Shown: positions 865 to 25,684 of the stretch, one piece after another
How positions within the stretch are numbered: position 1 is the first letter of the stretch
Layout: each line of letters opens with the position of its first letter
Origin: an uncultured archaeon
Lineage (GTDB): Archaea; Asgardarchaeota; Jordiarchaeia; Jordiarchaeales; Jordiarchaeaceae
Length of the DNA stretch: 32,000 nucleotides
Assembly: GCA_964510585.1 (NCBI GenBank)
Contig: CAZECW010000139.1
Span: 1 to 32,000, forward strand
Direction: 5' to 3'
Position numbers and translations under genes: made by a program
Notes under the pieces: generated by a model
What the model saw: the letters and a program-made list of their open reading frames with translations, nothing else
What the model was told of the DNA's origin: nothing
Database searches by the model: none

Positions 865-865
865 G

Positions 866-971: not shown

Positions 972-1487
972 CTATTTGGTTGTTTCTTTGTTTGTAGCGT
1001 CTGGTGGATCTCTTTTTAGCCATTCTTTGTAGAATGCGTCTATGTCTGGTAGGAAGTCGAATATTGGTGGGTAGAATGGTGGAACTGCTTCGACGTCTAG
1101 TAAGGTTTTGCACTGGGGGCAGAAGTATTCTCTCAGTTCTTGGTAATTGATGTTGGTGGACATATATTTGGGATATATTTCCATTAGTTTTTCTTCGGTG
1201 TCTCTCACGTATATAAGTGCGTTTAGTTTCCAATTTTCTCGGTAGTCGCCGAACTCGTAGCCGCAGTCACACTTGATGATTCTTTTTCCCTCCTTGGCCA
1301 CTATGTAGAGATGCTCTGCGTATGGCAGTATGATTTTTTCGCTCCATGGTACTTTTTCCTGTAGTATTTCAAGGTATTTGTCGAAGCGGTCTGTGTCTTT
1401 GGGTGAGCTCAGCATTTCCTTAATTTCAGGCCAGGAAAGTTTTCCCTCGATGAGTTTTCTAATTCTCTCCTTAGTGTAACGCGTCAT
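972..1487 (-). CDS. acxC: Acetone carboxylase gamma-subunit-like protein
   Basis: 171 aa with CxC (KCDCGYEFG) and CxxC (YFCPQC) zinc motifs, plus HLYIV, ENWK and REYFCP motifs. It is the third gene of the operon. Confidence 0.85.
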   Translation of the reverse strand: MTRYTKERIRKLIEGKLSWPEIKEMLSSPKDTDRFDKYLEILQEKVPWSEKIILPYAEHLYIVAKEGKRIIKCDCGYEFGDYRENWKLNALIYVRDTEEKLMEIYPKYMSTNINYQELREYFCPQCKTLLDVEAVPPFYPPIFDFLPDIDAFYKEWLKRDPPDATNKETTK

Positions 1488-1500
1488 TCAGAACCACCTC

Positions 1501-3750
1501 CTAGAAAAAGAAGTCCTCAGGCAAGCCCCAGAACTCCCTAAACTCTTTACCCCACCTTTCAGAAAGCCTGAGGGAATCATTGTACATTTCTTTTATTTCT
1601 TGGCAGACTTCCCTATTTAGAATCCTTGACCTGGTTTTTTCAATCCATTCTCTAACTGGAATAGCTTTTCTCCCCCTTTCCTCCCTGAGCTCCTTCCTTT
1701 TTTTCTCTGTTTTTTCCTTGTTTACCTTCCACTTTCCGGATACTTCGTCGCGTTCCAAAATCACACCATAAGTGCTCTCTGCGAATCTGAAAAGTATGGA
1801 CTCCTCATTAACATCTTTGGCAACTCTCTCTGGGTCTCTCTCTAAAACATCGCCATACCCGTCTCCACCTCTTACAGAGTTTATGTAGAGGTCTCCCTGA
1901 TTGAAGAGAATTTCTGGTGGAATAATCATCCTCTTCTCGTAGACGTAGTCGCCCTTAACATATTTTCTTATTTCGGAATTCTCTGGGTCAAATTCTCTAT
2001 AGGGATAAGGCTGTTTATTCTTTATGAGCTCCATCATATTGGTATTATGTATTTCGCGTCTGTAGCCACCAGCAGCAGGGTAACCTCCAAATAGTCCCCC
2101 GCTGGTAAATATGCTGACACCCATCCACATTAGTTCATAATCGTTGGTTTTCCAAAGCATACGTACTGATTCAAAGCCGTTGCCACCCCTGAATTTTCCA
2201 GGACCTGCAGAGTTGGGCTGAACTCTCCTACCCAAGTATAGCAGGGGTTCCACTATTTCCCACACCTCTACGTCGCCCATATCGGCTTCGGGGTTAAACA
2301 TGGCAAAGGCGTGGTCTAAACCGTCATCAAAAGCCCTAGCTCCAAGGCCCGAACTAGCAAACTCAAAGTTAAACATTGCAGACTCTCGACCCAAATAGTC
2401 CTTCCCGCCGCCAGACATCAAATTGTGACAAACAGTCATACCCGCCAAAACCTCTTCGATGAATCCTCTAGAAAAATATCCCCTACTATAAGATCTAAAG
2501 AGACCATTAAGACCAGTGATAAAACTTCCCCAACTAAAGACAGTACAGGGAAGCGTTGACTCTGGATTAAGAATCGATCCGTAAGGGAGTTTAAGTTCAA
2601 ACACCAACGATAGACCAGCATTTATCTTGTCACTGGGCCAGATTATTTCTGAGCTGATGGAATAGAGTCCACCATAAACAGCGCTGGGTGAGGCGTTAAA
2701 GGAATGGTATCCCCACTTTGAAGCCCCATCAAAATCTATTACAATGTTACCATCGGGCTTTATGGTCATCTCCATAGGCATGTGCATCACTGTGTCCTTA
2801 GCTGCCCTAGCAGGTACTCTTTTTGAGCCCTTAAATGTTACATCGCCGAAGGAAGCTGCGCGGTAACGCCCAGGAATCATGGTTCTTTTAATAACTTCTA
2901 TTACCGCCAATCTGCCGTCTTCTATGGCTTCACGAATGAAGCGTTTGAAGTTTTCTATTCCAATCTCATTTATAACTTTATGAACCGAGTTTCTAATTAT
3001 GTCGCACCCAGCCAACCTAGCTTTTTCGTCCAGTTTCCAGTAAATGGGATTTCTTATGAGACGTTCACATCTCACTTCCCAATACTTATAAATTGTGTCA
3101 TTCTCGCCAATCTTTTCACAGGGAGCCTTCAATCCTTCCTCATAGCAGGTAGTGGGTCCAACCGGCGCTGTGCCTGGGACAACTGCTCCTATGTCTAGGC
3201 CATGTATGCAGGCTCCAGCCCAAGCCACCATTTCTCCCTTCCAGAAAATGGGCTTTATGGTGTGAACATCCGCAGTGTGACAGTTTCCTATGAAAACATC
3301 GTTATTACAGAAGACATCGCCTGGTGCTATGCCCGGATTATCCTCGTAGTCGTTTCTAATCATCCATTTTATGGCATCACTCATAGTTCTTACGTGGGTA
3401 ATTATGCCTGTAGATATTGCTATGGTGTCACCCTCAGGACTATAAAGGGTAAAGCACAGTTCTCCTAACTCTTGGACAATGGGGGAGGCAGATATATTCA
3501 TAGATGTTTCCCGAGCACTAACTAGGGAGCCTCTAATGAGCGCAAATATCCGCTCGTAAACAAGTGGGTTCTGCTCTTTATATTCTAATTTTTCTAGTCC
3601 ATAGTATCTCCCCGTTTTCCGGAAGAGTTCCTCGGATTCCTTCAACATTTCTTTTAGGGTTTTACCGTTCCATCCAATTTTTCTGGTTCTCGAGCCTTCT
3701 ACTCCCTCAATCTCCACCAATTGTGGTTCTCTAACAAAACTTGGCACCAT
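1501..3750 (-). CDS. acxB: Acetone carboxylase alpha-subunit-like protein (hydantoinase B/oxoprolinase family)
   Basis: 749 aa with GELCFTLY, the metal-ligand motifs GNCHTADVHTI and IHGLDIG, and DSAGPGKFRGG-like and GGDGYGD motifs. Confidence 0.85.
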   Translation of the reverse strand: MVPSFVREPQLVEIEGVEGSRTRKIGWNGKTLKEMLKESEELFRKTGRYYGLEKLEYKEQNPLVYERIFALIRGSLVSARETSMNISASPIVQELGELCFTLYSPEGDTIAISTGIITHVRTMSDAIKWMIRNDYEDNPGIAPGDVFCNNDVFIGNCHTADVHTIKPIFWKGEMVAWAGACIHGLDIGAVVPGTAPVGPTTCYEEGLKAPCEKIGENDTIYKYWEVRCERLIRNPIYWKLDEKARLAGCDIIRNSVHKVINEIGIENFKRFIREAIEDGRLAVIEVIKRTMIPGRYRAASFGDVTFKGSKRVPARAAKDTVMHMPMEMTIKPDGNIVIDFDGASKWGYHSFNASPSAVYGGLYSISSEIIWPSDKINAGLSLVFELKLPYGSILNPESTLPCTVFSWGSFITGLNGLFRSYSRGYFSRGFIEEVLAGMTVCHNLMSGGGKDYLGRESAMFNFEFASSGLGARAFDDGLDHAFAMFNPEADMGDVEVWEIVEPLLYLGRRVQPNSAGPGKFRGGNGFESVRMLWKTNDYELMWMGVSIFTSGGLFGGYPAAGGYRREIHNTNMMELIKNKQPYPYREFDPENSEIRKYVKGDYVYEKRMIIPPEILFNQGDLYINSVRGGDGYGDVLERDPERVAKDVNEESILFRFAESTYGVILERDEVSGKWKVNKEKTEKKRKELREERGRKAIPVREWIEKTRSRILNREVCQEIKEMYNDSLRLSERWGKEFREFWGLPEDFFF

Positions 3751-3753
3751 TCC

Positions 3754-5889
3754 TCACTTCCTCCTTATGTGAAATATTCGATACTCATCTAAGTATGCGT
3801 AACAGTCTCGGGGCAGAAAGAGGGTGGTGTTGGGAGATTCCACAATCGCCGTACCATTTATTACGTTTCCCGCTTTTAGTAGATCCATTTCGTACACTTC
3901 TCCGGGTGACCATTGACCCCTCCAGTAAACGTCTCTCTCACCCTTAAAAGCCTCTTCAGGAGGCTTTGCACCCTTCTTTTTCTCCTTGTACAGTACTGGT
4001 TTTTTTAAGGGATACCTTCCAACCCCTATAGCGTATGTTAGGTAGTAACCTGCTTCTGGAAGTTTTGCGCTTCGGGCGTAAATTTTTTCGTAGTGTTTTT
4101 CAAAGGTTTCAATTACTTTATCCATATCCTTTCCTGAGAGTATCTTTTCCACGGGGGATGGAAATTCCAAGTCGGTTAGTTGACCTGCGTATTGCATTCG
4201 GACATAGGGATGGAAGGTTATTTTTCCCTTCTCACAACCAGCGTCTACTAATTCTTTGAAGCATTCCTCCCTCTGAGAATCCCAGAACCCGGTGACCAGT
4301 GAACCAATAAAACTCTTAAAATCATCATTGGCATTAGGCCAAATTGGTAGATCCGATGAGCGATCTCTTCTAGCCTCCAGATTTCCACAAGCACAGCCAA
4401 AGGCCGAAAAGGCAGCCGCCCAACTGGGAACCAATACATCCAAAAATGGAATTTCCCGAGTATAGTTTGCTGCCAGAACTGGGCCGCCCCCACCATAGGA
4501 AAGCAAAACATAGTCCACAGGTGAATAGCCTCTTCCCAATATAGCTCCGTAAACTATATCCCTCATCTGGGTCTCAAGTAACTCTACGACTCCCGCAGCA
4601 GCATCGTAAGTGTCAAGGCCCAGTTCGGATGCTACTTGTTTTTCTATCTCTCTATACGCTTTTTCCTTGTTTAGCTTTATTTCTCCGCCTAAGAAGTAGT
4701 CTGGATTCAGAACTCCCAGTACAAGCTCACAATCGGTGATGGTAGGATACTCCACCCCGCCTTCCTCAAATGAGACTCCGATGCGATAACCAGCGCTGTC
4801 TGGACCAATCTCTACTCTCTTTGAGATTGGATCCACTCTCACATAGCTTCCCATGCCAGCCCCTCGACTCTCTGTAGCCACCATGGGCAGATTAATCAGA
4901 AACCTGCCTATTTCTGGATTGGCTTCAATAGTGTATTCTCCGTCGGTGATTAGTCCCACATCAAAGCTCGTTCCACCAACATCAGTGCACACAATGTTTC
5001 TTAAGCCTAGGACTTCGCCCAAATATTTTCCTCCAATTATTCCGCCTATGGGACCAGAAGTCATTGAGCGAACCAACTGTTTTGTTTCTATGCTAATTGC
5101 ACCCCCGTGACTTGACATGATCCGAAGTTCGAATCTTGACCCTAGCTTTCTCAACTCCTGATCAATTTTTCTCAGTTGACTTCTTGAGCCTGCAGCTGCG
5201 TAGGCTTCTAGAGTTACCACATTCATTCTTGGAAAATCACCCCTAATAGGATGAAATTCGGAGGCTGTTATGATGGGAATATTCACCTTTCTCTCTGCCA
5301 AAACTTTTTGTGCTATTTCCTTAGCTCTGCTCTCATGAATTCCGTTCCTATAAGAAAAGAGAAAATTAATAACGATAGCCTCAACTCCCAAGTCTAATAG
5401 TTCTTTAACAGCTGATTCCACCTCGTGCTCATAAAGTGGGATTACAATATCACCCATAACATCTATCCTCTCCCTAACTCCTCGAATGAGCTCCTCGGGT
5501 ATAAGCGGCTCATTGTGAATGTGGGTGGCAGCATGAAACCGATCCTGGTAGGAGTATCCCATATAGGTTTGTTTAGCTCTCTCCAAGCGGAAATAATGCT
5601 CCATTCCCTTCGTTACTATGGCTCCCACTTTGCTGCCTTTCCTCTCAAGAACCCTGTTGAGCATAGTGGTTCCGGAGTAGATAGCAGTTTCGAGGTTGGG
5701 AACAGTGTCTTCAGCCTTCATATCCCAGTAACTCAAAGCATTGCTCAGCGAGGCCAAGAAACCTATAGACTCATCATAAGGGGTGCTTCGCGCCTTGCCA
5801 ATGGTAAAGCGGCCTTCCTCATCTATCACTATCGTATCAGTCATCGTGCCGCCAGCATCGATTGCCAGGACATTTGGAACCTTTACCAA
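3754..5889 (-). CDS. acxA: Acetone carboxylase beta-subunit-like protein (hydantoinase A/oxoprolinase family, ATP-binding)
   Basis: 711 aa with IDAGGTMTD, SGTTMLNRVLERKG, SGPIGG and TDVGGTSFD actin-like ATPase motifs. TTG start preceded by GGTGG. Confidence 0.85.
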   Translation of the reverse strand: MVKVPNVLAIDAGGTMTDTIVIDEEGRFTIGKARSTPYDESIGFLASLSNALSYWDMKAEDTVPNLETAIYSGTTMLNRVLERKGSKVGAIVTKGMEHYFRLERAKQTYMGYSYQDRFHAATHIHNEPLIPEELIRGVRERIDVMGDIVIPLYEHEVESAVKELLDLGVEAIVINFLFSYRNGIHESRAKEIAQKVLAERKVNIPIITASEFHPIRGDFPRMNVVTLEAYAAAGSRSQLRKIDQELRKLGSRFELRIMSSHGGAISIETKQLVRSMTSGPIGGIIGGKYLGEVLGLRNIVCTDVGGTSFDVGLITDGEYTIEANPEIGRFLINLPMVATESRGAGMGSYVRVDPISKRVEIGPDSAGYRIGVSFEEGGVEYPTITDCELVLGVLNPDYFLGGEIKLNKEKAYREIEKQVASELGLDTYDAAAGVVELLETQMRDIVYGAILGRGYSPVDYVLLSYGGGGPVLAANYTREIPFLDVLVPSWAAAFSAFGCACGNLEARRDRSSDLPIWPNANDDFKSFIGSLVTGFWDSQREECFKELVDAGCEKGKITFHPYVRMQYAGQLTDLEFPSPVEKILSGKDMDKVIETFEKHYEKIYARSAKLPEAGYYLTYAIGVGRYPLKKPVLYKEKKKGAKPPEEAFKGERDVYWRGQWSPGEVYEMDLLKAGNVINGTAIVESPNTTLFLPRDCYAYLDEYRIFHIRRK

Positions 5890-6275
5890 TTTTTACCACC
5901 AATTATTTCCAATCAAAAACAGTTCATAGCTTATATGACGAAACTGGTGTTATTTTAATTTAAGTTCCTACTTTTTCATTATTCACAGATATAAAATTAT
6001 CTCCTGATTTGTCAAGTGGCAAACTCTATAAATTTTTTAATATATTTTATTTGTAAATTAAAAAATTTTCAAAAAATTAAGAAAAAATTATAAAAACAAA
6101 AATCTAATTCACTTGCATCAATTTAAGGAGTGTGGTGGCAAAAACGTATACTTCCCGTTTACGGTAAAAAATTCAATTTGGCAAATTTGTCGAAGAATAG
6201 AAATCATATCGCAAGACGACTCTAGTGCCCAGTCAGAAGCGGGATGACAGAAATGTTACTCACGATAATAATTTT

Positions 6276-6920
6276 TTAGTAACCATTGGGCAGGGATTCT
6301 ACAAATGAGTAGTCTAATTTTATGTTTTCATTTGCGTTTCCGATGACAGGTACATCGTGGCCTGGTAGGAGTATCTCAACATCCAGCTCTGTTAGTCTTT
6401 TTATTGATTTCTTAAGCTCGAGTATGTCGCCTCCAGGTATGTCTGTGCGCCCCACCCCGTAAGCAAAAATGGTGTCTCCTGAAAAAAGAATCTTTTTATC
6501 CGAATTGTATAGACAGATGCTGCCCGGGGAATGACCTGGGGTATGGATAACTTTGAAATTCATATTCCCAAGCTGTATTATGTCTCCGTCCTTCAGTTTG
6601 ACTTGAACCTCAAATCCCGCCTTTTTCTCAATGTAGGCTGCCTCGATTTCGTGAATCATTACTTCAGCTGCACAGAAATCCACTACTTCAAGCACTCCAC
6701 CAATGTGGTCTGGGTGGAAGTGAGTTATTACCAATTTTTTTATGTTCCGAGGGTCTAGGCCCAGAGATTCAATATCCTTGATGAAGTGGCTCCTGAAATC
6801 CCCGGTTAAGCCGGAATCAATTAGTGCCAGTTCACCCTTGCCAACAACGTAAACGTTTGATCCCCAGGAACGCCCAGGAATCATTGCTATTTGGTCAATT
6901 ATCTCCATTTCAAATTTCAC
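6276..6920 (-). CDS. Metallo-beta-lactamase-fold hydrolase (glyoxalase II-like)
   Basis: Motifs THFHPDHIGG (HxHxDH), HTPGHSPGS, FSGDTIF and LPGH. Confidence 0.85.
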   Translation of the reverse strand: MKFEMEIIDQIAMIPGRSWGSNVYVVGKGELALIDSGLTGDFRSHFIKDIESLGLDPRNIKKLVITHFHPDHIGGVLEVVDFCAAEVMIHEIEAAYIEKKAGFEVQVKLKDGDIIQLGNMNFKVIHTPGHSPGSICLYNSDKKILFSGDTIFAYGVGRTDIPGGDILELKKSIKRLTELDVEILLPGHDVPVIGNANENIKLDYSFVESLPNGY

Positions 6921-7088
6921 CCTTTTCTCGGAAGATTAACTATACAAATACCCAAATACATTTATATTTTCGCCCAGTTTGAGAATCTGGGTTTAGTGGT
7001 TTGATTTTTAAGTGCAGGGGAAATGTTATCTTTAAAGATTTTGATTATCAAATGTTATTCTACCAAAGTGTTGGAGGTTTAGTTAGTT

Positions 7089-7508
7089 ATGCCGAGTGTG
7101 GAAGAGCTTTTGGAGAAGGCTAAGGGTTTCTATCCTAAACACCCAGACCTTATGAGGCACCTTGAGATAGGAGCGCTATGGGAGTATCATATTCGCCCCT
7201 TCACACTGGACAGCAACGATAAACTCATCTTCCACTTAACGAAGCTCTCCGAGGATGAAATCAGATTTGAACAGGGACCTGCACCAGAAAAGCCAGATTT
7301 AATACTTTATTTTACCGAGAACGCCATGGTGAAACTGGTCGATGAATCAAATGATGCTGACACCTATTATGAGAAGTATCGTGAAATACTCAAAAACCCC
7401 GACGTAGGAGTGGAACTAGACTACAAAATAAATAAACCCCGCCTAAAACTCTTCAGAATGGGCTACAAAGAATGGGCTGAAACCTACAAGTTCCAAGCTT
7501 GGACCTAA
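7089..7508 (+). CDS. Hypothetical protein, possibly SCP2 (sterol/lipid-carrier)-like fold
   Basis: 139-aa ORF with a GGAGG upstream. The segment IFHLTKLSEDEIRFEQGPAPEKPDLILYFTENAMVKLV resembles the SCP2 beta-hairpin/PD-strand-helix pattern, judged by eye only. Confidence 0.5.
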   Translation: MPSVEELLEKAKGFYPKHPDLMRHLEIGALWEYHIRPFTLDSNDKLIFHLTKLSEDEIRFEQGPAPEKPDLILYFTENAMVKLVDESNDADTYYEKYREILKNPDVGVELDYKINKPRLKLFRMGYKEWAETYKFQAWT

Positions 7509-7544
7509 ACCAAAAAATTGAGGATTTACCCTGACTTAGAGCAT

Positions 7545-7817
7545 TTAATAAAATATTTTATCAGATCTTTTCATCTTTAGGTATTCTTCTATGTAGGCTC
7601 TTAGCCCTTTTTCTCCAGCGGCTTGGATGGCTAATTCTTTGTCACCGATTATCTTCAATTCTACTTCGTCTAGGGAGTAGTCGGAATCCAAAGAGTCGTC
7701 ATTAGCAATATCTACTCTTAGCGAGTTGCCCACCCTCACTGTGCACTTCCTTTTCCCCTCTTCAATCCTCGTTACGTATTCCCCTGTGAGGTAATCCCAA
7801 CCCTTGGTTACCTTCAT
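7545..7817 (-). CDS. Small hypothetical protein
   Basis: ATG at 7817 follows a GAGGTG RBS. About 90 aa with protein-like composition, convergent with 7089-7508. Confidence 0.55.
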   Translation of the reverse strand: MKVTKGWDYLTGEYVTRIEEGKRKCTVRVGNSLRVDIANDDSLDSDYSLDEVELKIIGDKELAIQAAGEKGLRAYIEEYLKMKRSDKIFY

Positions 7818-8038
7818 ATCAAATAACACCTCTCACAATCTAATCCATTGGGAATAAAAGTATTTTTTCTTTGCCCCTTATCGGATACTGTTTTTGAGAA
7901 TTTTTCAAACAGAAAATATTTACACCAAATTATTTCAACAATTTTACAAATACTTTTTTAAACAAATTTATTAGAACGAAAAATAACAATTTTATATTCT
8001 TAGAATTGTGATGGTTTTGGAATATTAGAGGTGGTTTC

Positions 8039-8685
8039 TTGAGTGAAGTCTTGAATAAAATTGCCAAGTCTATCGAAGAGTTGGATGGAAAAGAAGCCGA
8101 GAAATTGGTGAGGAAGGCTCTGGACGAGGGCGTTGACCCGGTTAAGATTTTGGAGGATGGAATTATAGCCGGAGTCAGAGCCATTGGAGAAAAGTTTGAA
8201 AAAAGGAGTACTTTTTAGCCGAACTTTACGAAGGCGGTGAAATAGCGGAGAAACTGGTGGAAATTGTGGGACCTAGGATACCCAAGGAGGCAGGTGGGGC
8301 ACGCAAGAGAGTGGTTATTGGCACAGTGCACGGAGACCTACATGATATAGGTAAGAATCTTGTAGCTATGCAGCTTACCATGGCGGGCTTTGAAGTTAGA
8401 GATCTAGGCATAGATGTTCCCGCAATGAGATTCATCGAGGAGGCGGAGAACTTCAAAGCAGATATTATAGCTATGTCATCTCTCTTGATGGCCACAATGA
8501 TGAATATGGCAGAAGTTGTGAACCTTCTAAAAGAGCTTGGCTTGAGAGACAAATACAAAGTACTGGTGGGCGGTGGACCCATAAATCCCGCTTTAGCTCA
8601 AATGTTTGGAGCAGACGGATACGCTGAGAACGCTGTGGAAGCGGTAAAGGTCGCCAAAAAGTTGGTGGGCTTAGGAGGTGCTTAA
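8039..8685 (+). pseudogene. Corrinoid (B12-binding) methyl-acceptor protein, MtmC/MtaC-like, split by a one-base frameshift in an A6 run (8199-8204)
   Basis: TTG at 8039 after GAGGTGG gives a B12 cap domain (EGVDPVKILEDGIIAGVRAIGEKFEK), which stops at TAG 8216-8218. The -1 frame continues KEYFLAELYEGG...GDLHDIGKNLV (DxHxxG). Adding one A restores a 215-aa protein. Confidence 0.85.
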
Positions 8686-8688
8686 AAA

Positions 8689-10059: not shown

Positions 10060-10524
10060 TCGCGCTCCAGCAATCCAAAACTTACACACATCCACCTCTT
10101 TTTTTGCGGTATAATCCCCAAATTAGATTTGTTAGAAAATATAAATCTTTACAAAAATAGGCCTCGCCTGAATCCAAACTATTAATATATGTAAAAGTTT
10201 TTGGTGTAACTCTCTTAATGTTTGAATTTGTGGAGGGTTTTTTACACCTTTTTCTAAAAGTCGTTTTTTCCTCCTTTTTGCTCAAAGAAACCATTTTATG
10301 TCTTCTTTCATAGAGAGACTTTAACTCAAAAAACCCAAACATCCTCCAGTTGAACACATTCCAAAAAAGACTTTTTACACGCCCTCATAAGTTCTAGAAA
10401 TTGATATAAGTTTGGTGCCCTGTCTCTAAACTTAAAGAATTGTTAACCAGGCATCGTCGCAAACCAATTCCCAAAATTTACCTTGAAAATCAAGGAAGGG
10501 TAATATTGTTTGGAGGACTCGAAA

Positions 10525-13820: not shown

Positions 13821-14204
13821 ATGAAAACTGTCAGTATTTAGAACAACAGTTGAAAGTCTTTTTGGAGGCGGAGGCTCTACAAACATGTCGCAATAAAAGC
13901 AAAACCCATGGTGTTCTTACCAGTTTTCCTATTGAAGGGATTAGTCTGAAGCCCAATTAATTCCTATAAGAGTTCTCTGATGCAACCCCTAATTTTCCAT
14001 ACAAGCGTCTTATGAAACCATCACTCTTGCCCTGTTGATAGATTTTACAATTCGCGTAGAACAAGGGGGAAGAGATTTTCGGGTAATGCGGTGAATGATT
14101 ACTTTGAGGAGCCAGCAAAAGTTCGATGCAAGGTACCAATAAATTAATATTTGTCATATTCTTCTAAAAATATGGGTTGGAAGAATTTTTGGAGGTGTGA
14201 AGAA

Positions 14205-15173: not shown

Positions 15174-15243
15174 AGACAATATACGCTCCCCCTTTTTTAT
15201 TGGTAAAAAAAGAGAGTTTAATTGTTTCGAAGAAAGCCACTGA

Positions 15244-16029: not shown

Positions 16030-16042
16030 TTTTTTTCACCTT

Positions 16043-16933: not shown

Positions 16934-16980
16934 GATAACACCAGCTTCAGATGCTGTTAAAACCCGATATGTGGAATTAG

Positions 16981-16988
16981 CTTATAAA
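16981..16988 (-). promoter_or_regulatory. TATA box of the CoA-transferase-fold operon
   Basis: TTTATAAG on the minus strand, 48 nt upstream of the start at 16933. Confidence 0.5.
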
Positions 16989-17223
16989 TAAAAGCCCAAA
17001 AAATAAAGGATAAAACTAATTTTAGTTAACTCTGATCATTTGGGACGAAATTTACCGACCGACTTCCACAAATGTCCACCGATATGGCGGAAAAGTGAAC
17101 CTGTCTGGGTAGCGACCTGAATTATTTTGGTTAATTGTATGGTGTTCGGCTAATCGCTAGTGCTATTTGTGGAAAGGTTTGCATAGGATTCAGAAGTTAC
17201 TCATATGGTAAAGTTTTGGCGCA

Positions 17224-18357: not shown

Positions 18358-18919
18358 AAAAAACACCTCCAACTCAAAGAATAAATCTATGTATTATAAT
18401 CTCCAACCATCTTGGGGCTGTTAATCGTTGAAATTAGAGAAAACCTGTTTTTCTCCACTAAGGAATACATTTTCAGTGATAATCAACATATTTATAATTT
18501 TTGGAGCAAAGAGGGACAAAATGCAGCTTCTCCACATTTGTACCGAGCAAAACTAATCCGTTGCGTATAACCGGCCAAAATGTGGGTAGTAGGAGGAAGC
18601 GAAACTTACTGACAGGCCTCATATAAATAGTTTTTTTGTCGATAGTTTTATAAAGAAAACAAATCCAGAGAAACGAAATCCAGAGCATCGTAAATATGAA
18701 GTGAAGCGTTACCCCTTTAAATGTGAGGCGTTAGTGGCTACAGTGATTCCTCCACCAAAAAATCACACGCGAAAAATGGTGACCAAAATTCGTTAAGACG
18801 CTGCGAACAGTCTTTTGATTAAACCTTAGAGTGGAGGAAAACAAAGGCGGAAGACCCAAATAAGCATTCAAACAAAGAATGGATATTTCGTACTATTCTG
18901 GATTTAAACCAACTTGGGT

Positions 18920-18957
18920 GAAACCCTATTTTGAAAAATCAAAACGGGTAGGGTTTC
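18920..18957. promoter_or_regulatory. Imperfect palindrome upstream of the thiolase-fold operon
   Basis: GAAACCCTA-TTTTGA-AAAA-TCAAAA-CGGG-TAGGGTTTC ends 42 nt before the ATG at 19000. Confidence 0.4.
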
Positions 18958-18999
18958 CAGAGGCTGAATAAATTGAATTCCTTTGTAGAGGTTTAAATT

Positions 19000-20142
19000 A
19001 TGGATAAAGAAGTAGCCATTGTGGGAGTAGCACAAACCAAGTATGAGGAAGAAAAGGCGGATTTACCCTACTCTGAACTAGTTTTCGAAGTCGTCAAAAA
19101 ACTCCACGACGAGCTGGGAATAACTAAAGACGACGTGGGAAGCATAATAACTAGCTCCAACGATTTCAACGACGGAAGAACAATAGCCAGCATGGCCATT
19201 CAGGATGCTTTAGGAGCCGTGGGAAAATCGGAGTCCCGAGTATCGGGAGACGGAGCATTCGCCTATGTCTACGGAGTAATGAGAATACTAGAAGGAACAT
19301 ACGATACAGTGATGGTGGTTTCACACTGCAAGTGTTCCGAGTCAAACATTTACCTTGTAAACAATTCTATTTTTGAGCCCTACTACCAGAGATGGCTGGG
19401 ACTAGACCAGGTCTCTTCGGCGGGATTAATGGCGAACATGTACTCACACAAGTATGGAATCACCCAAGAACAAGCGGCAAAAGTGGCAGTAAAAAACCGC
19501 AAAAACGCTCTAAACAATCCCTACGCACATCTACAAAAAGCAGTTACAGTCGACGAAGTCCTAAATTCCAAAATGATGGCCTACCCCCTCAAAGAACTAG
19601 ATCTACCGCCACTCTCGGACGGAGCTGTAGCAATGCTCCTAACAAACAAAGAGAAAGCCAAAAAATATACAGACACACCAGTGTGGTTTAAGGGCCACGG
19701 CAATTGCACCGACGCCTACTACCTTGGACACCGCAACATGACCGACCTCATAGGACTAGAACTAGCAGCAAGAGAAGCCTACAAAATGGCGGGAATAAAA
19801 AACCCCATGAAGGAAATCGACGTAGCAGAAATCTATGAAGCGTTCACCTACCACGAACTAATGAATTATGAAGCCCTAGGACTATGCAAAAAAGGCGAGG
19901 GAGGAAAACTCATCGACAGCGGACAAACAGAAATGAACGGAACCCTCCCAGTAAACCCCTCAGGAGGCGTACTCTCAAGCAACCCCTCCATGGCCAACGG
20001 ACTAGTTCGTGTAGCAGAAATCGCACTGCAACTAATGGGCAAAGCCGAAAAAAGACAGGTGAAAGACGCCAAAATTGGACTAGCCACAGGAATGAATGGA
20101 ATCTGCTCCCAAGGAAACTGCGTAATCATATTAGAAGCATGA
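19000..20142 (+). CDS. Thiolase-fold protein lacking catalytic Cys/His, Ltp4-like (putative aldolase subunit)
   Basis: LHDELGITKDDVG...NDGR...ESRVSGDGAFA has no Cys where ExACASG is expected. AEIYEAF has Tyr for His, and NPSGGVLSSNP has Asn for His. Confidence 0.75.
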   Translation: MDKEVAIVGVAQTKYEEEKADLPYSELVFEVVKKLHDELGITKDDVGSIITSSNDFNDGRTIASMAIQDALGAVGKSESRVSGDGAFAYVYGVMRILEGTYDTVMVVSHCKCSESNIYLVNNSIFEPYYQRWLGLDQVSSAGLMANMYSHKYGITQEQAAKVAVKNRKNALNNPYAHLQKAVTVDEVLNSKMMAYPLKELDLPPLSDGAVAMLLTNKEKAKKYTDTPVWFKGHGNCTDAYYLGHRNMTDLIGLELAAREAYKMAGIKNPMKEIDVAEIYEAFTYHELMNYEALGLCKKGEGGKLIDSGQTEMNGTLPVNPSGGVLSSNPSMANGLVRVAEIALQLMGKAEKRQVKDAKIGLATGMNGICSQGNCVIILEA

Positions 20143-20161
20143 AAATGAGGAGATGAAAAAT

Positions 20162-21322
20162 ATGGTAAAACAAAAAGTAGCAATTGTGGCAACCGGCCAA
20201 ACAAAACACAGAAGCCGAAGAAGAGACGTCAACATATCCGAAATGATTTATGAAGCAGTAAAAATGGCCCTAGATGAAGCCCAACTCACACCCAAAGACA
20301 TAGACGCCGTCGTTATTGGAAACATGGACCACTTCGAAGGAATAAACTTCTCCGAAATGTGGACCGGAATAGAATCCGCACCTGGATACCTCAAACCCGT
20401 AGTAAAAGTAGCCACAGGGGGAACCACCGGAACCTCCCTAGCAGCATACGGATACTACGCAGTAGCCTCTGGAATGTATGACAAAGTACTAGTAGTGGGA
20501 TGGGAAAAAATAAACGAAGGAGGAGCCACAACCGGAATAGTAACAGCCTTCGACGCCAGATGGGAAAGACCCGCCCTAGCCGGGGCACTAGGCCCCCTCG
20601 CTCTGATGGCTAGTATGTATATGTGGGAATTTGGAGTAACACCAGAACAAGCCGCAAAAGTAACAGTCAAAAACAGAAGAAACGCAGCAAATAATCCCTT
20701 CGCACACCTGCAACAACCCAACATGACAGTAGAAGAAGTGATGAACTCACCAGTAATATCGTGGCCCCTAAGACTCCATGATTGTTGCCCGCAGAGTGAG
20801 GGTGCTTGTGCGATTGTTTATGCGGGTGAGGGTGTGGCTAGGAAGATTAGTGATAATTTGGCGTGGGTTAAGGGTGTGGACACGGGGCACTATTATACTT
20901 ATGGTGGCGATGATGTGATGCATAAGTATCCTGCGGCCAAGATTGCTTCTACCAGGCTTTACAAGAAGGTGGGTATTAGGAATCCGTTGAAGGATTTGGA
21001 TGTGGCTGAGGTTTATGAGCCGAGTAGTTGGGCGGAGCTTATGTGGACTGAGGCTTTGGGTTTCTGTGAGTATGGTCAGGGTGGTAAGTTGTTGGATGAG
21101 GGTGTTACTGAGATGGGTGGTGAGTTGCCAGTGAATCCTTCGGGCGGTGTTATTGCGACGAATCCTATTGGTGCTACGGCGCTTATTCGTGTGGCTGAGG
21201 CTGCGATTCAGGTTAGGGGCCTGGGTGGTAAGCGTCAGGTTCCTGATGTGGAGTTGGCGTTGGCTCATGGTTTCGGTGGTAGTGTTTGGGCGGATCTTAT
21301 GATTTTGGGTAAGGAGCCTTGA
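20162..21322 (+). CDS. Thiolase-fold protein lacking catalytic Cys/His, Ltp3-like (putative aldolase subunit)
   Basis: Motifs GQTKHRSRRRDV, DHFEG, ATGGTTG (no Cys), WEK, NPFAHLQQP, CPQSEGACA, AEVYEPSSWAELMW and NPSGGVIATNPIGA, closely matching actinobacterial Ltp3 as I recall it. Confidence 0.8.
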   Translation: MVKQKVAIVATGQTKHRSRRRDVNISEMIYEAVKMALDEAQLTPKDIDAVVIGNMDHFEGINFSEMWTGIESAPGYLKPVVKVATGGTTGTSLAAYGYYAVASGMYDKVLVVGWEKINEGGATTGIVTAFDARWERPALAGALGPLALMASMYMWEFGVTPEQAAKVTVKNRRNAANNPFAHLQQPNMTVEEVMNSPVISWPLRLHDCCPQSEGACAIVYAGEGVARKISDNLAWVKGVDTGHYYTYGGDDVMHKYPAAKIASTRLYKKVGIRNPLKDLDVAEVYEPSSWAELMWTEALGFCEYGQGGKLLDEGVTEMGGELPVNPSGGVIATNPIGATALIRVAEAAIQVRGLGGKRQVPDVELALAHGFGGSVWADLMILGKEP

Positions 21323-21336
21323 TTTGAGGTGATTTT

Positions 21337-21822
21337 ATGAGTGAGAAGAAGGAAGAGCCTTTTACTATAAATTGGCTTACTGATTTGCCTTATCGTTATG
21401 CTTTGGGACCCGTTGCATCGAAGTTCTTTAGGGTGCTTAAGGAGTCTGGTAAGTTACTGGCGATTAAGTGTAGGAAGTGTGGGAAGGTGTTGTTCCCTCC
21501 GAGGTCTGTGTGTGCGGACTGTTTGGTGGAGATGACTGTGGATGATATGGTTGAATTGAGTGGTGAGGGTTCGCTGGATGGTTTTACTGTGGTTAATTAT
21601 CCTTTTGTGGATCCTAATACTGGTGAGACGAGGCCTTTTCCGTATGGTTATGGTGCGATTAAGTTGAAGGGTACAGATACTTGGATGCTGCATTTTGTCG
21701 ATGAGACGGATCCTGGGAAGATTAAGCCGGGTATGCTGGTGAAGGCGGTGATTAAGCCTAAGAATGAGCGGAAAGGTACTTTAGAGGATATACCCTACTT
21801 TAGAGCGGTTGAGAAGAAGTGA
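21337..21822 (+). CDS. DUF35 zinc-ribbon/OB-fold protein 1
   Basis: KCRKCGKVLFPPRSVCADC followed by an OB-fold segment (GYGAIKLKGTDTWMLH). Confidence 0.9.
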   Translation: MSEKKEEPFTINWLTDLPYRYALGPVASKFFRVLKESGKLLAIKCRKCGKVLFPPRSVCADCLVEMTVDDMVELSGEGSLDGFTVVNYPFVDPNTGETRPFPYGYGAIKLKGTDTWMLHFVDETDPGKIKPGMLVKAVIKPKNERKGTLEDIPYFRAVEKK

Positions 21823-21847
21823 GATTTCAATCTGTGGAGGTTTTGTT

Positions 21848-22288
21848 GTGAGTGAGGATAAGTATTTTCATGGTAGGATTAGGGTGCCTTATAGGCATGT
21901 TGCTGGTGCTTATGCTGGTCGGTTTATTCAGGAGATTGGCAATAATAAGAGGATTATGGGTGTGAAGTGTTCCAGATGTGGTAAAGTGTATGTTCCTCCT
22001 AGGATGGTTTGTTTTGCGTGTTTTGAGAAAATGAAGGAATGGGTCGAAGTTGGCAAGCAAGGTACGGTTAAGGGATTTACGGTGGTTAACTATTCGACGC
22101 CAGTTATGCCGTTGAAGCCCCCCTTTGCTTATGGGATTATTGAGTTAGATGGTTCAAATACTGGTTTTGTGCACATCATTAAGGAGGGTGACCCCAAGAA
22201 GCTGAAGGTTGGCATGCGGGTTGAGGCTGTTTTCAAGAGCAACCCAGAGGGCAACATTTTGGACATTGAATACTTCAAACCAGTATAG
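21848..22288 (+). CDS. DUF35 zinc-ribbon/OB-fold protein 2
   Basis: KCSRCGKVYVPPRMVCFAC, PPFAYGIIELDG and GMRVEAVF. GTG at 21848 follows GGAGG. Confidence 0.9.
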   Translation: MSEDKYFHGRIRVPYRHVAGAYAGRFIQEIGNNKRIMGVKCSRCGKVYVPPRMVCFACFEKMKEWVEVGKQGTVKGFTVVNYSTPVMPLKPPFAYGIIELDGSNTGFVHIIKEGDPKKLKVGMRVEAVFKSNPEGNILDIEYFKPV

Positions 22289-22448
22289 TATGCTTCCCCT
22301 TTTTCATTTTTTATTTAGATTTTTTGTTTTAGGGATTGTTTCCCAATTATGTTTGTTTGACGCTCTCTGCGACCAAAAATAGGGGGATTTTTTCGCCAGC
22401 AATTAGGTGTAATTTGATTCTCTTCTGAGTAGGGTAGTTTTTTCATTT

Positions 22449-23135
22449 TTAGGCGATTGTTTTCCACACGAATCTTTGACTCCCAAGAATTAGCAATAGT
22501 ACTGCTAACAGTATTGGGCTAATTGGGAACAAGGGTGTGATGAATTGTAGAGTTCCTGTTAGCATAAGTAGGAGTATTACTATTACTGCAAGGAGCGAGA
22601 ATTGGGCTGCTGTTAGTGTGTAGACAGCTAGTTTTTCTTTGGGGGTTCCGTTTCTTAATATTTCGCGCATTCTCTTTTTGGCTTCTCCATAGGTTTTGTA
22701 GCGGTTTGAGGACGGTAGTCTCCAAGTTCTGAGCGTGAATAGTAGGTCTCGAAATTCAGCCTCTTTTAAGAGTCTCAAAAGGACCCAGTTGTGTAAATCA
22801 ATTATTATTAAGGAGAGTGCAAGGGTGAAGATTAGAAGTAGTAGCGTCATTTCGGTTATTGTGTTAATTTTGAATAGTGTGATTCGGTTGGAGAGGTACG
22901 CGATTCTCACGGTGAAGGTGGTGGCTTCAAGATCCCATGGTCCGAAGAGGTTCTGGTAGTATGAGGGTGCGCTGGAAAAGAGGAGAAGCAATTCCAGGGG
23001 TATACTAAAAACAGTGGAGAGCGAGAGCCAAGTGTAGGTGAGAAAGAGGATTGCTCAAGGAATCCATGATAGAAATCCTATCATTACCATTCGTTTGAAC
23101 GCATTATTTACCTCTAATTCCTCTTCTAGAAACAT
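22449..23135 (-). pseudogene. Multi-pass membrane protein with an in-frame TGA at codon 27 (23055-23057)
   Basis: ATG at 23135 gives MFLEEELEVNNAFKRMVMIGFLSWIP*AILFLTYTWLSLSTVFSIPLELLLLFSSAPSY..., continuous in frame with the tracked 180-aa hydrophobic ORF. Confidence 0.55.
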
Positions 23136-23302
23136 TTGATTAGCTCTCCTAGACGCACGCTATTTTTATTCTTCTTTGAGTATAAAAAGTTATTTTGGGT
23201 TTGAATGAGACTGGTTTTAGAAAATTTTATAACAATGTTTTAACCTAGATTTAGGTTAATGTGTTTCCATAAGACTACTAAAAAGGGTAGGAGTAGAGTG
23301 TT

Positions 23303-24316
23303 TTGGTTTCTAAAGGAGAAGAGATGCTAAGAGAAGATATTGAGAGGGTTCAGGAGCAGAGACTGCAGAGAGAAGTGAAGTACGCTTATAATTATTCTGA
23401 GTTTTACAGGAAAAAATTCGCTGATGCTGGGTTGAAACCTGATGACGTAAAGAGTTTGGATGATTTGTCGAGGATTCCTGTTACCTCCAAGGAGGAGGTT
23501 CTATCCAAGTTTAGTGACAGTGATCCTTTTAGTGGTCGGCTTTGTGTTCCCGTAGATAAGTTGTGGTATATAATTTTACCTCATGAAGCCACGTTGTCTG
23601 GCAGACCACTCTACACTGCATATACTTATAATGATCGCCGGGTTCTTCTGGAACAGTTGACGCGGTTCTTCCGAATGCTTGGTGTTGGAGCTAAGGATTT
23701 AGTTATGACTTCTGGTCAATCTTGGGAGCTTACCCCAAGAGTTCTGGAGAGCGCATTCACTATTCAAGAAACGGTTCAGGATAGGTTAGGGTTCATCAAC
23801 ATGCCTTTGGAGGCTTCCCTAGTTTTTATTGATATGCCTAGAGCCATTTATCTCGGGGAGCAACTTAAACCGAGAATTTTTTTCACCCTAGTATCATACT
23901 TTGATCAGGTCACTCAGGGGATAAAGAGTCAAAAAAAGGTGCCTAAGGATGTTTTTCAGCCGGAAATAATTGTTCTAAGAGAGTTGATGGATGATATGCG
24001 GCTTACAGATGAAAAGCAAAAGGAGTACAAAAGTGAGTGGGGTAGTGAGTTTTATAGAATGTTGGACGTACAGGATACTGCTTTTCTTGCCATGGAGTGC
24101 CCTGAGCACAATGGACTACACGCATGGGAGGACATGTTCATCATAGAGGCATTGAGTAATGGAGAACCAGTGGCTGAGGGTAAGAGAGGAAAGTTGACAA
24201 TAACTAATCTCTGGTCAGAGGCTACACCAGCGATAAGGTGGCAAACAGATTACGAAGTGACTTTGGACAAAAAGCGCTGCAAGTGTGGAGGAAACCATCT
24301 GAGAATTAAGCTATGA
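23303..24316 (+). CDS. Degenerate PaaK-like (phenylacetate-CoA ligase/F390 synthetase family) protein: N-domain only, P-loop eroded
   Basis: Motifs YSEFYRKKF, DLSRIPVTSK, ECPEHNGLHAWED and GKLTITNL...PAIRW. ILPHEATLSGRP stands where STTGTTG is expected, and the protein ends at RCKCGGNHLRIKL before the C-domain. An alternative ATG lies at 23324. Confidence 0.75.
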   Translation: MVSKGEEMLREDIERVQEQRLQREVKYAYNYSEFYRKKFADAGLKPDDVKSLDDLSRIPVTSKEEVLSKFSDSDPFSGRLCVPVDKLWYIILPHEATLSGRPLYTAYTYNDRRVLLEQLTRFFRMLGVGAKDLVMTSGQSWELTPRVLESAFTIQETVQDRLGFINMPLEASLVFIDMPRAIYLGEQLKPRIFFTLVSYFDQVTQGIKSQKKVPKDVFQPEIIVLRELMDDMRLTDEKQKEYKSEWGSEFYRMLDVQDTAFLAMECPEHNGLHAWEDMFIIEALSNGEPVAEGKRGKLTITNLWSEATPAIRWQTDYEVTLDKKRCKCGGNHLRIKL

Positions 24317-24334
24317 AAAAAGGGTTTAGAGTGG

Positions 24335-25684
24335 ATGTTTATGGTAGATTGGAGAAAATACTGGAACGAGCCAATTGAGACTATATCCAGAAAGGATCTA
24401 ATGGAACTGCAATTTAAAAGGTTAAAGAAGCAGTTAAACAACATTTATCATAACTCCTCATATTATAGGGGAGTGATGAGAGAAAGTGGGATTTCGCCAG
24501 ATGATATAAAGTCATTAGGAGATTTTACTAAATTTCCAGTTACCTACAAGGATTCAGTGAGAGAATTGATAAATGCGGGTGACCCCTTCGGCGGCCTATT
24601 ATGCGTTCCATTTGAAGACATAAAATCTATTTATTCCACAACGGGCACTACAGGAATACCTTCAATACATGCTCAGACCAAAGAGGATCAAGAGTACAGC
24701 GCAGAGCAAACTGCTAGGCTAACTTGGATGCAGGGATTTAGGCCAGGAGATGTCCTTTTTTGGCCCCCCGTGAGATGGAACGGGTTCATCTTCGGCGTCA
24801 CCCCGGGACTAGAAAGAATAGGGGTAGTATCAATCACAAATATTTTGTATCCTTTACCCAACTATGCAGACAAAATGGTCTACGCTCTTAAACACCTTCG
24901 CCCTGACGTAATGGCAGTACCAATAGTGATATTTGACGGGTTTCTAGAATCCTGCAAAAGACTTGGGGAAAAACCCGCTGAAATATGTGAAAGCTTGAGA
25001 GCAATTTCAATTGGTTATGGAGATGTTTTAACAAATAGCTATCGGCAAAAGTTAATAAAGGAGGCGAGGCTAGAGCCGGAGAAGATTTTTAGTGGCGGTG
25101 GGGCAGCGGATACCATGATTCATTTGGCGGAGTGTGAAGTACGTGAGGGCACTCATATTTGCGAGGATCTTTATTTGGCTGAGATTCTAGATCTGGATAC
25201 CAAGGAGCCTGTGGGGGAAAATGAAAGGGGCGAATTGATTCTATCGAATCTTTATATGAGAGGCACCCCACTTATAAGGTGGGGTAGTGAGGATATTTCC
25301 ACCTTCAGTAGGGAAACTTGTAAGTGTGGTAGGACTCATGGTAGAGCAACTTGGATTGGTCGAACAGGTTTCCAGCTTAATGTTATGGGTAAATGGATTC
25401 TTCCTTTGGATGTTGATGATCTGTTTATAGATGTGCCGGAGGCTGCGGGTACTCCCTTTACACTTTTCAAGTATAAGAAGGGCGTGATGGAGAAGCTGAA
25501 GATGAAGATGGTTTACGATGGAAGCAAAGGTTTAACCAAAGAGGAGTTCAGAGCGAAGGTTTCTGGAATTATTAAGGAGAAACTGGGTGTTGAAACCGAT
25601 ATTGAAATAGTGGATTCCATAGACGATTTGCCCAAAATTGCCCACAAATATAAAAGAGTTGAAGATCTCACCAAAGAAAGTTAA
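24335..25684 (+). CDS. PaaK-like acyl/aryl-CoA ligase (phenylacetate-CoA ligase family)
   Basis: Intact YSTTGTTGIP P-loop, GELILSNL...TPLIRW, CKCGRTHGR, the hinge IGR and a terminal catalytic-Lys region (KYKRVED). Confidence 0.85.
   Translation: MFMVDWRKYWNEPIETISRKDLMELQFKRLKKQLNNIYHNSSYYRGVMRESGISPDDIKSLGDFTKFPVTYKDSVRELINAGDPFGGLLCVPFEDIKSIYSTTGTTGIPSIHAQTKEDQEYSAEQTARLTWMQGFRPGDVLFWPPVRWNGFIFGVTPGLERIGVVSITNILYPLPNYADKMVYALKHLRPDVMAVPIVIFDGFLESCKRLGEKPAEICESLRAISIGYGDVLTNSYRQKLIKEARLEPEKIFSGGGAADTMIHLAECEVREGTHICEDLYLAEILDLDTKEPVGENERGELILSNLYMRGTPLIRWGSEDISTFSRETCKCGRTHGRATWIGRTGFQLNVMGKWILPLDVDDLFIDVPEAAGTPFTLFKYKKGVMEKLKMKMVYDGSKGLTKEEFRAKVSGIIKEKLGVETDIEIVDSIDDLPKIAHKYKRVEDLTKES

Follow-up and report, generated by a model that had tools for sequence, protein, structure and literature searches.

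BKACE genes linked to a Cys-less thiolase-fold cassette, with an acetone-type carboxylase operon nearby, in a Jordarchaeia genome

When genes for three kinds of enzyme whose reactions could follow one another lie close together on one stretch of archaeal DNA, are they one pathway? The window considered here (32,000 nucleotides of contig CAZECW010000139.1, assembly GCA_964510585.1; our contig C139) belongs to an Asgard genome of 3.78 Mb, with a completeness of 96%. Between positions 972 and 25684 it holds an island with an AcxABC-type carboxylase operon, two genes for beta-keto acid cleavage enzymes (BKACE, DUF849) and a cassette, Thl1-Thl2-DUF35a-DUF35b, of two thiolase-fold proteins and two DUF35 proteins (Table 1). 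BKACEs convert a beta-keto acid and acetyl-CoA to an acyl-CoA and acetoacetate. An original prediction, made from the letters of the sequence, had joined these genes into a chain in which retro-aldol cleavage releases a ketone, Acx carboxylates it and BKACE cleaves the resulting beta-keto acid. The part of that proposal which stands is a lyase-like cassette linked to BKACE, together with the genuineness of the Acx operon; Acx as the connecting middle step is not supported. On balance the island itself is best taken as a set of catabolic modules that were inherited separately and came to lie side by side in one genus, within a Jordarchaeia genome with heavily expanded acyl-CoA gene families.

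Linkage of BKACE to the thiolase-fold cassette

Of 37 loci compared with BKACE as anchor, 14 have a BKACE that shares 66% identity or more with BKACE1, and at 12 of these Thl/DUF35 genes lie within ~3 kb, in Jordarchaeia, other Asgard archaea and Dehalococcoidia/Chloroflexia. Two Thermodesulfobacteriota loci, at 48% identity, also pair BKACE with Thl/DUF35. Adjacency occurs in Asgard families f1, f9 and f13, in Chloroflexi and in Thermodesulfobacteriota, and gene orders vary. The order is BKACE-Thl1-Thl2-DUF35a-DUF35b-ECH (ECH, enoyl-CoA hydratase) in family f9, with ~170-210 nt between BKACE and Thl1, Thl1-Thl2-DUF35-DUF35-BKACE in Dehalococcoidia/Chloroflexia, and ECH-Thl1-Thl2-DUF35-DUF35-ECH-BKACE in the host's own paralogous locus on another contig (C60). 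At locus L139, in a complete genome from yet another Asgard family, BKACE and an acyl-CoA dehydrogenase (ACAD) gene are divergent from Thl1-Thl2-DUF35-ACAD, and three more loci with BKACE and Thl/DUF35 are L141, L144 and L146. The linkage of BKACE with Thl1-Thl2-DUF35-DUF35 is thus a genuine one across three or four phyla. Recurring neighbours are genes for ACAD, ECH, iron-type alcohol dehydrogenase (Fe-ADH), SCP2, AMP-ligase and GctAB-like proteins, with ACAD and ECH usually, and a GctAB-like pair lacking the catalytic Glu often, beside the core. Of the three modules whose co-location the original prediction would have had sought across genomes, BKACE and the cassette do co-occur in distant microbes; the full trio with Acx was not found together beyond close relatives.

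Just upstream of BKACE in family f9 (L003 6582-9831; also L005 and L007) stand genes for a thiolase-like protein of 473 aa, a weakly DUF35-like protein of 200 aa and an F420-type, luciferase-like oxidoreductase. A comparable long Thl with DUF35 adjoins GctAB-like genes in Chloroflexi.

Pertinent to the role of a carboxylase is that five Asgard carriers of the BKACE-lyase operon are 100, 98, 92, 91 and 89% complete (G150, G213, G165, G071 and G231, respectively), and that none of PF08882 (Acx gamma), PF02538 (hydantoinase-B) and PF01039 (biotin carboxyltransferase) was found in any of them. Hence no ketone carboxylase is needed for the conserved unit to work. A biotin carboxylase acting before hydration, by the logic of the Atu and sitosterol pathways, was considered and rejected for the host and these five other module-bearing Asgard genomes, given the lack of PF01039; in Chloroflexi, with 4-5 copies of PF01039, a biotin-carboxylase-first route could still operate.

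The two BKACEs of the window, predicted as paralogs, both have full-length PF05853 matches (profile positions 1-274) and are tandem copies, 87-89% identical. Both match the NCBIfam model of the 3,5-dioxohexanoate enzyme (NF053538) best, at scores of 367 and 361 bits that lie under the equivalog cut-off of 430. Alignment to PDB 3LOT (343 bits) has the motifs HVHVRD and RVGLED, which presumably hold the HxH and E-D metal and catalytic residues of Kce. In contigs of a ~90% identical relative (runs X9 and X14) position 13787 is joined to 15190, with BKACE2 skipped, so close strains differ in whether they have the tandem duplication; assemblies of relatives are likewise broken at 13787-15190.

A looser relation between BKACE and the cassette would be one with no direct hand-over, BKACE being an ATP-free entry that activates a free beta-keto acid for ACAD, hydratase and lyase, with the lyase regenerating the acetyl-CoA and the rest of the island (Acx, MtmB-like, old yellow enzyme-type and PaaK-like genes) belonging to unrelated accessory catabolism. 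The presence of AMP-ligases in the same clusters as BKACE, suggesting alternative activation routes, the ability of the recurrent neighbour Fe-ADH to make keto acids in principle, and the occurrence of same-clade BKACEs without a Thl cassette (L011, L137, L138) all accord with this. Nevertheless, the tight BKACE-Thl1 spacing in f9, and the fact that the two are adjacent in several gene orders, speak for steps that follow one another, no source of the free beta-keto acid is evident, and we regard this arrangement as quite unlikely.

Residues and probable activity of the cassette

HMMER alignments to solved thiolases place Val in Thl1 and Thr in Thl2 at the nucleophile Cys, Asn in both at the His of GHP, and YEAF in Thl1 and YEPS in Thl2 at the HDCF position. 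The description of a 'Cys-less' thiolase-fold pair with two DUF35 proteins was accordingly apt, as no nucleophile Cys, GHP His or HDCF Cys is left, and by these residues the cassette is not a true SCP2-type thiolase. In the retro-aldolases Ltp2 (YDHF) and Sal (YDCY) the catalytic-base Tyr has the first position of these motifs (PMC12329534), and this is the position occupied by Tyr288 of Thl2. Within Thl2 orthologs Tyr288, in AE[IV]Y-x-P, and Asn337-Pro are invariant (14/14, all lineages), and K81, E118, Y270, D283, Y288, P290 and N337 are kept. The corresponding Tyr varies in Thl1 orthologs (Y, F, S, D, T), which keep instead a KN..NA..NP loop, Y148 and R245. Complementary conservation of this kind suggests a division of labour in a heterodimer, in which Thl2 is likely the catalytic subunit, acting through Tyr288.

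Structure prediction of the Thl1:Thl2 heterodimer gave an ipSAE of 0.96, against 0.00 for the best of 3 controls. Among solved complexes 51 of 78 attained that mark, as did 2 of 108 mismatched pairs. Prediction runs had at least 95% of contacts in common, with a partner pLDDT of 90. As thiolase dimers exist as solved structures, the pass may mirror mere likeness.

Cassettes with a similar composition are found in two actinobacterial loci (L135, L136), where a tandem-DUF35 protein accompanies a ~355-aa Ltp4-like and a ~390-aa Ltp3-like thiolase-like protein, with AMP-ligase, crotonase, P450 and steroid thiolase genes as neighbours. The Ltp3-like proteins are 41-42% identical to Thl2 and, like it, have AEIY-x-PF and SNP without the Cys, while Thl1 is 28-30% identical to the Ltp4-like and 36% to the Ltp3-like proteins (the comparators being picked by context and not by gene name). 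In the account of Wilbrink 2012 that PMC6593523 gives in citing it, ltp3 and ltp4 encode aldol-lyases of C24-branched sterol side chains. From the lost thiolase residues, the kept Tyr and the Ltp3-like relatives, the cassette is probably a heteromeric Cys-less thiolase-fold complex with retro-aldol (aldol-lyase) activity, and its designation as Ltp4/Ltp3-like, an aldol-lyase rather than a thiolase, appears well chosen.

Other functions for Thl1-Thl2-DUF35 can be envisaged: the complex might be a decarboxylase, might transfer acyl groups independently of CoA in the manner of PhlABC, or might serve as a scaffold with no catalytic role. The trypanosomal SCP2-thiolase-like protein (SLP) reportedly has weak decarboxylase activity, and both SLP and PhlC are among the PDB matches of the Thl proteins. 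That the acid and oxyanion residues of Ltp2 and Sal are lost, with Y-x-P and N-P in Thl2, and that Thl1 and Thl2 keep different, complementary motifs, would also suit such a function. PhlC, however, uses a Cys that Thl1 and Thl2 do not have, an invariant Tyr stands at the catalytic-base position of two characterised aldolases, the conserved ECH and ACAD neighbours supply a 3-hydroxyacyl-CoA, and the closest annotated relatives are Ltp3/Ltp4-type cassettes, which are aldol-lyases according to the literature. An activity other than that of an aldolase is therefore judged very improbable.

The acetone carboxylase and the proposed coupling of the steps

The Acx-like subunits of the window are of true acetone carboxylase type, as had been anticipated. 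Along its full length the alpha subunit matches that of acetone carboxylase (5M45/5SVB) with 690 bits, whereas acetophenone carboxylase reaches 134 and hydantoinase 57, a difference that rules out the hydantoinase or oxoprolinase identity that the original prediction had itself raised. The gamma subunit scores 185 bits to AcxC, and His158/Asp161/His183 of the alpha subunit align ungapped (HMMER) with the Mn-ligand positions of 5M45_A, which we take to be those numbered His150, Asp153 and His175 in X. autotrophicus. By these similarities AcxABC is a genuine acetone or small-ketone carboxylase that would make acetoacetate, and so would share this product with BKACE; as judged from the genes, the lyase and BKACE do not depend on it as a link between them.

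Synteny of Acx with the island is limited to three same-genus genomes, at ~90% nucleotide identity. A complete genome of the same genus (G015) lacks both Acx and the island and has a single BKACE (66% identical, without a Thl neighbour; L137) and one weak Thl2 match; the island, and with it much of the paralog expansion, is accessory within the genus. On the contigs of the host's two other Acx sets there are no module genes. A metagenome scan with a single AcxB query gave no relatives, whereas a query built as a 5-sequence alignment gave 80 metagenomic Acx loci (949 kb), in none of which (0/80) were Thl or DUF35 genes found and only 3 of which have a distant BKACE. Of 251 Asgard genomes sampled, 87 have BKACE and 30 the Acx gamma subunit, and outside the genus no BKACE within 100 kb of Acx was found among the matches listed for the Acx-bearing genomes.

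The host genome is replete with relevant paralogs: 3 Acx sets, 5 BKACEs, 6 Thl-Thl-DUF35-DUF35 cassettes, ~8 GctAB-like pairs, ~10 LplA-like genes and several PaaK pairs. Some chance co-location is therefore to be expected, and in a placement simulation with uniform placement the chance of at least one of 3 Acx sets falling within 7 kb of a BKACE locus is 0.06; for a distance of 15 kb, with Thl cassettes counted as well as BKACEs, it is 0.15. The island occupies both strands and is not an operon: gene orientation and gaps exceeding 290 nt divide it into at least 10 transcription units. An assembly chimera of acx with the remainder was rejected, as overlapping contigs of related genomes tile 140-10367, ~8460-23000 and 13002-32000.

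Against this background the three-step chain in the host, with the lyase giving a methyl ketone and acetyl-CoA, AcxABC and ATP giving the beta-keto acid, and BKACE a shortened acyl-CoA plus acetoacetate, has to be weighed. It would allow beta-methyl branches, as in isoprenoid acids or isovalerate, to be bypassed without biotin, and is chemically sound; all three enzyme types lie within 21 kb, and the Acx is genuine. In the 96%-complete host neither a carboxyltransferase (PF01039) nor a biotinyl/lipoyl domain (PF00364) was found, yet it has the Acx sets, BKACEs and Thl cassettes in the numbers just given, and because of that lack the chain is somewhat favoured in the host. One metagenomic lineage has AcxB-AcxC-BKACE-4HBT in a row. 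Contigs of RNA-Seq run X23 on acx, BKACE and Thl2 genes lend a little further weight, DNA carry-over being possible. On the other side stand the confinement of the syntenic trio to one genus, the metagenomic Acx loci without Thl or DUF35, the two other host Acx sets without module genes, and the five operon-bearing genomes (89-100% complete) without an Acx-, hydantoinase- or biotin-type carboxylase. The acx genes also run in the other direction from BKACE1, from which five unrelated genes separate them, and the characterised Acx enzymes, to our knowledge, take only acetone and butanone. Overall, the chain is unlikely.

Transcript data have limited bearing here. The X23 contigs are short, derive from a ~90% identical relative, and fall on acxC, acxB, acxA, both BKACEs and the GctB-like, LplA-like and Thl2 genes; its stretches without cover (~9.6-13 kb and 18.3-19.6 kb) are uninformative. 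The 'metatranscriptomic' libraries X9 and X14, which cover the window evenly, are probably DNA.

The reading to which we incline, if only slightly, is one in which BKACE and the aldol-lyase form the core and are directly coupled, with Acx outside it. ACAD and hydratase would convert a beta-branched acyl-CoA to a tertiary 3-hydroxyacyl-CoA, which is not oxidisable, and the heteromeric Ltp3/Ltp4-type complex would cleave this by a retro-aldol reaction to a carbonyl compound and acetyl-CoA, with Tyr288 of Thl2 as the base. Thl1 would be a partner not equivalent to Thl2, and the pair of DUF35 zinc-ribbon proteins would serve as clamps. BKACE would then turn beta-keto acid and acetyl-CoA into a shortened acyl-CoA and acetoacetate without expenditure of ATP. 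With 3-substituted glutaryl- or glutaconyl-CoA-type substrates the carbonyl product of the lyase would already be a beta-keto acid, so that the two products of the lyase would be exactly the two substrates of BKACE. Direct coupling is the simplest general reading because the operon occurs without a ketone carboxylase or biotin carboxyltransferase, and substrates of this type would fit the recurrent partner with the glutaconate-CoA-transferase fold.

Several observations weigh against direct coupling or against an Ltp2-like mechanism. The second catalytic residue of Ltp2 and Sal is not kept, Pro290 of Thl2 being at the position of the Ltp2 His and Sal Cys, and Asn337 is at the position equivalent to GHP and to Tyr344 of Ltp2; in Ltp2 the second catalytic residue is Tyr344, with His296 as oxyanion hole, and in Sal it is Cys304 (PMC12329534). 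Within the window the BKACE genes and the Thl operon are split by three opposite-strand genes, and profile searches found no ACAD or hydratase there. A natural source of 3-substituted glutaryl-CoA is not evident in these organisms. The Acx-to-BKACE link is real in at least one lineage, a high-GC metagenomic contig (L118 9965-14170, among the three loci with distant BKACE) on which AcxB, AcxC, BKACE and a 4HBT thioesterase run in one direction. Of the Acx-bearing Asgard genomes 29/30 also have BKACE, a figure confounded by lineage, and the host has three Acx sets without any biotin-dependent carboxylase.

A wider and more tentative proposal, doubtful as it stands, would combine both aspects. 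BKACE and an Ltp3/Ltp4-type lyase may constitute an undescribed two-enzyme device, found from Asgard archaea to Chloroflexi and Thermodesulfobacteriota, that requires neither ATP nor a carboxylase in cleaving beta-branched tertiary 3-hydroxyacyl-CoAs and recapturing the beta-keto acid as acyl-CoA plus acetoacetate. In the biotin-enzyme-free Jordarchaeia it might be extended by acetone-type carboxylases that admit methyl ketones from 3-methyl-branched (isoprenoid, isovalerate) chains.

Other genes of the island and comparison with known systems

Table 1. Genes and gene groups of the island, with window coordinates
Feature	Position	Strand	Match or basis
acxA-acxB-acxC-type operon	972-5889	-	three contiguous genes, Pfam
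AcxC, gamma subunit	972-1487	-	PF08882, 147 bits
Hydantoinase_B/AcxB-type, HydB-like Mn subunit	1501-3750	-	Pfam
Hydantoinase_A/AcxA-type, HydA-like ATPase subunit	3754-5889	-	Pfam
Metallo-beta-lactamase-fold protein	6276-6920	-	Lactamase_B, 131 bits
B12-binding corrinoid protein, 142 aa	8257-8685	+	PF02310, 94 bits
MtmB-like methyltransferase, no in-frame amber codon	8689-10059	+	PF05369, 280 bits, full-length profile
Old yellow enzyme (OYE)/FMN + FAD/NAD(P) enoate or dienoyl-CoA reductase (FadH/BaiCD-like)	10510-12507	+	Oxidored_FMN + Pyr_redox_2
BKACE1	12825-13784	+	PF05853, 335 bits; NCBIfam 367
BKACE2	14151-15173	+	PF05853, 328 bits; NCBIfam 361
GctB-like beta subunit	15244-16029	-	CoA_trans
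GctA-like alpha subunit	16043-16933	-	CoA_trans
LplA-like protein	17224-18372	-	PF21948; NCBIfam matches far under cut-off
Thl1, thiolase-fold	19000-20142	+	profile match
Thl2, thiolase-fold	20153-21322	+	profile match
DUF35a	21337-21822	+	zf-ChsH2 + OB_ChsH2_C
DUF35b	21809-22288	+	zf-ChsH2 + OB_ChsH2_C
PaaK-like short form, 337 aa, without C-domain	23303-24316	+	NCBIfam, below cut-off
PaaK-like full-length aryl/acyl-CoA ligase, 449 aa	24335-25684	+	NCBIfam, below cut-off

Pfam and NCBIfam searches recovered, where predicted, every family that had been named for the window except a possible SCP2-like protein: no window open reading frame matches SCP2 in Pfam at E<=1, and tblastn with the SCP2 proteins that accompany the module in other genomes likewise gave no match in the window. 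The closest public contigs are of Candidatus Jordarchaeia, in keeping with the suggested Asgard origin, and hot-spring metagenomes of several studies contain near-identical DNA.

Attention is drawn to the CoA-transferase-fold pair between the BKACE genes and the cassette. Its description as Glu-less is borne out by alignment, which places Arg at the position of the catalytic Glu54 of GctB with no Glu in the surrounding segment. PDB matches of the beta subunit are GctB (1POI), IpdB (6CON/6CO6) and AibB (5MZW), those of the alpha subunit GctA, IpdA and AibA, and the scores are 120 and 143 bits for GctAB, 47 and 124 for IpdAB, and 41 and 85 for AibAB. The pair is probably not a transferase and would act as a lyase, hydrolase or decarboxylase on a CoA ester, as IpdAB and AibAB do. 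The order BKACE-BKACE-GctB-GctA is found again in another genus of the same order (L138), and in Chloroflexi a GctAB-like pair is also near the BKACE-Thl module.

The LplA-like gene is divergent from the Thl operon. It is one of ~10 such paralogs (142-864 and 17224-18372 in the window; others on C134, C193, C189, C24, C96, C158, C15 and C105), several of which adjoin Thl, GctAB or BKACE genes, and of the five GcvH-like genes in the genome one is directly upstream of the LplA-like gene on C193. The LplA-like proteins may be other than ordinary lipoate ligases.

The FadH-like reductase is, as expected, a two-domain OYE reductase; its NCBIfam matches, to FadH/OYE and BaiCD, are under cut-off, and four paralogs are elsewhere in the genome. 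The PaaK-like ligases were likewise found, as a short and a full-length gene side by side with sub-cut-off NCBIfam matches to PaaK and F390 synthetase, a pairing of which the genome has at least six further instances (C196, C82, C195, C67, C150, C70). The B12-binding protein gene directly upstream of the amber-free MtmB-like gene makes a corrinoid protein/methyltransferase pair, a separate module, and an antisense open reading frame at 8226-8582 is probably spurious.

The combination of enzymes had been thought not to be described as a pathway, and no published description was found. Literature searches for BKACE/DUF849 together with DUF35 or thiolase-like lyases, and for acetone carboxylase with Asgard archaea, gave nothing related; the paper on BKACE genomic context by NetSyn has no mention of thiolase or DUF35, and the description of Jordarchaeia none of acetone, thiolase or hydantoinase. 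Little is understood of the means by which strict anaerobes, lacking oxygen and in many cases biotin carboxylases too, pass beta-alkyl branches of isoprenoid, alicyclic and alkyl-aromatic acids. We know of no biochemical characterisation of Ltp3 and Ltp4 themselves, and if the proposed coupling is true, proteins of their type gain a biochemical setting in organisms other than sterol degraders, a role can be assigned to a large BKACE clade that is as yet uncharacterised, and there is a testable ATP-sparing route yielding acetoacetate. For Asgard archaea, the modules add to the broad acyl-CoA catabolic repertoire of hot-spring lineages. A practical corollary of the negative result is that an acetone carboxylase lying nearby in a single genus is no ground for annotating a pathway.

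Of the known systems, the acetone carboxylases of Xanthobacter autotrophicus and Aromatoleum aromaticum (5M45, 5SVB) share with the window copy the three subunits, full-length similarity and the Mn-ligand positions. The window copy differs in being archaeal and thermophilic, in being one of three paralogous sets, and in having no cognate acetoacetate-activating enzyme evident beside it. With characterised BKACEs, i.e. Kce of lysine fermentation and the triacetate/3,5-dioxohexanoate enzyme of anaerobic phloroglucinol degradation (PMC10470551), the window proteins have in common the full-length PF05853 match and the HxH and E-D motifs; in contrast to the latter enzyme, their scores to its model are below cut-off and no phloroglucinol-pathway genes are near them. 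The conserved partner here, unlike in known BKACE systems, is a thiolase-like lyase, for which no literature report was found. The GctAB-like pair resembles IpdAB (a cholesterol ring-cleaving hydrolase) and AibAB (3-methylglutaconyl-CoA decarboxylase) in being an alpha/beta pair of glutaconate-CoA-transferase fold without the catalytic beta-Glu, although it is more similar to GctAB itself.

The Ltp2-ChsH2(DUF35) and Sal-Shy(DUF35) retro-aldolases (6OK1; PMC12329534) have, as does the cassette, an SCP2-thiolase fold without the thiolase Cys, a motif-first Tyr, a DUF35 partner (Cys4 zinc ribbon plus OB fold) and a hydratase that makes the substrate. They are homodimers, whereas a heteromer of two paralogs is predicted here; the Thl2 motif is Y-[EQDN]-P, with neither His nor Cys, and Asn replaces Tyr344 of Ltp2; the window DUF35 proteins are free-standing and not fused to a MaoC hydratase; and similarity is low (89-97 bits to 6OK1). 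A closer parallel is the Ltp4-Ltp3 plus Rv3521-type cassette of sterol-degrading Actinobacteria, with two distinct thiolase-fold proteins and two DUF35 domains in one operon and, in the actinobacterial loci, acyl-CoA ligase and crotonase genes nearby. In the window, by contrast, the DUF35 domains are two separate genes and not one tandem protein, Thl1 is nearer to Ltp3-like than to Ltp4-like proteins, there is no sterol context (P450, Mce or Kst genes), and the host is an anaerobic archaeon. The two actinobacterial loci have no BKACE partner, and it is the conserved BKACE partner for a putative lyase of Ltp3/Ltp4 type that is new.

In broader outline the proposed route parallels Atu/Liu beta-decarboxymethylation (geranyl-CoA carboxylase, hydratase and 3-hydroxy-3-isohexenylglutaryl-CoA lyase), in which a beta-alkyl block of beta-oxidation is also dealt with by hydration and then a C-C lyase acting on a tertiary alcohol. 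Atu/Liu uses a biotin carboxylase and a TIM-barrel lyase of 3-hydroxy-3-methylglutaryl-CoA lyase type, and releases acetate; the host, without a biotin carboxyltransferase, would use a thiolase-fold lyase with BKACE, and would release acetoacetate.

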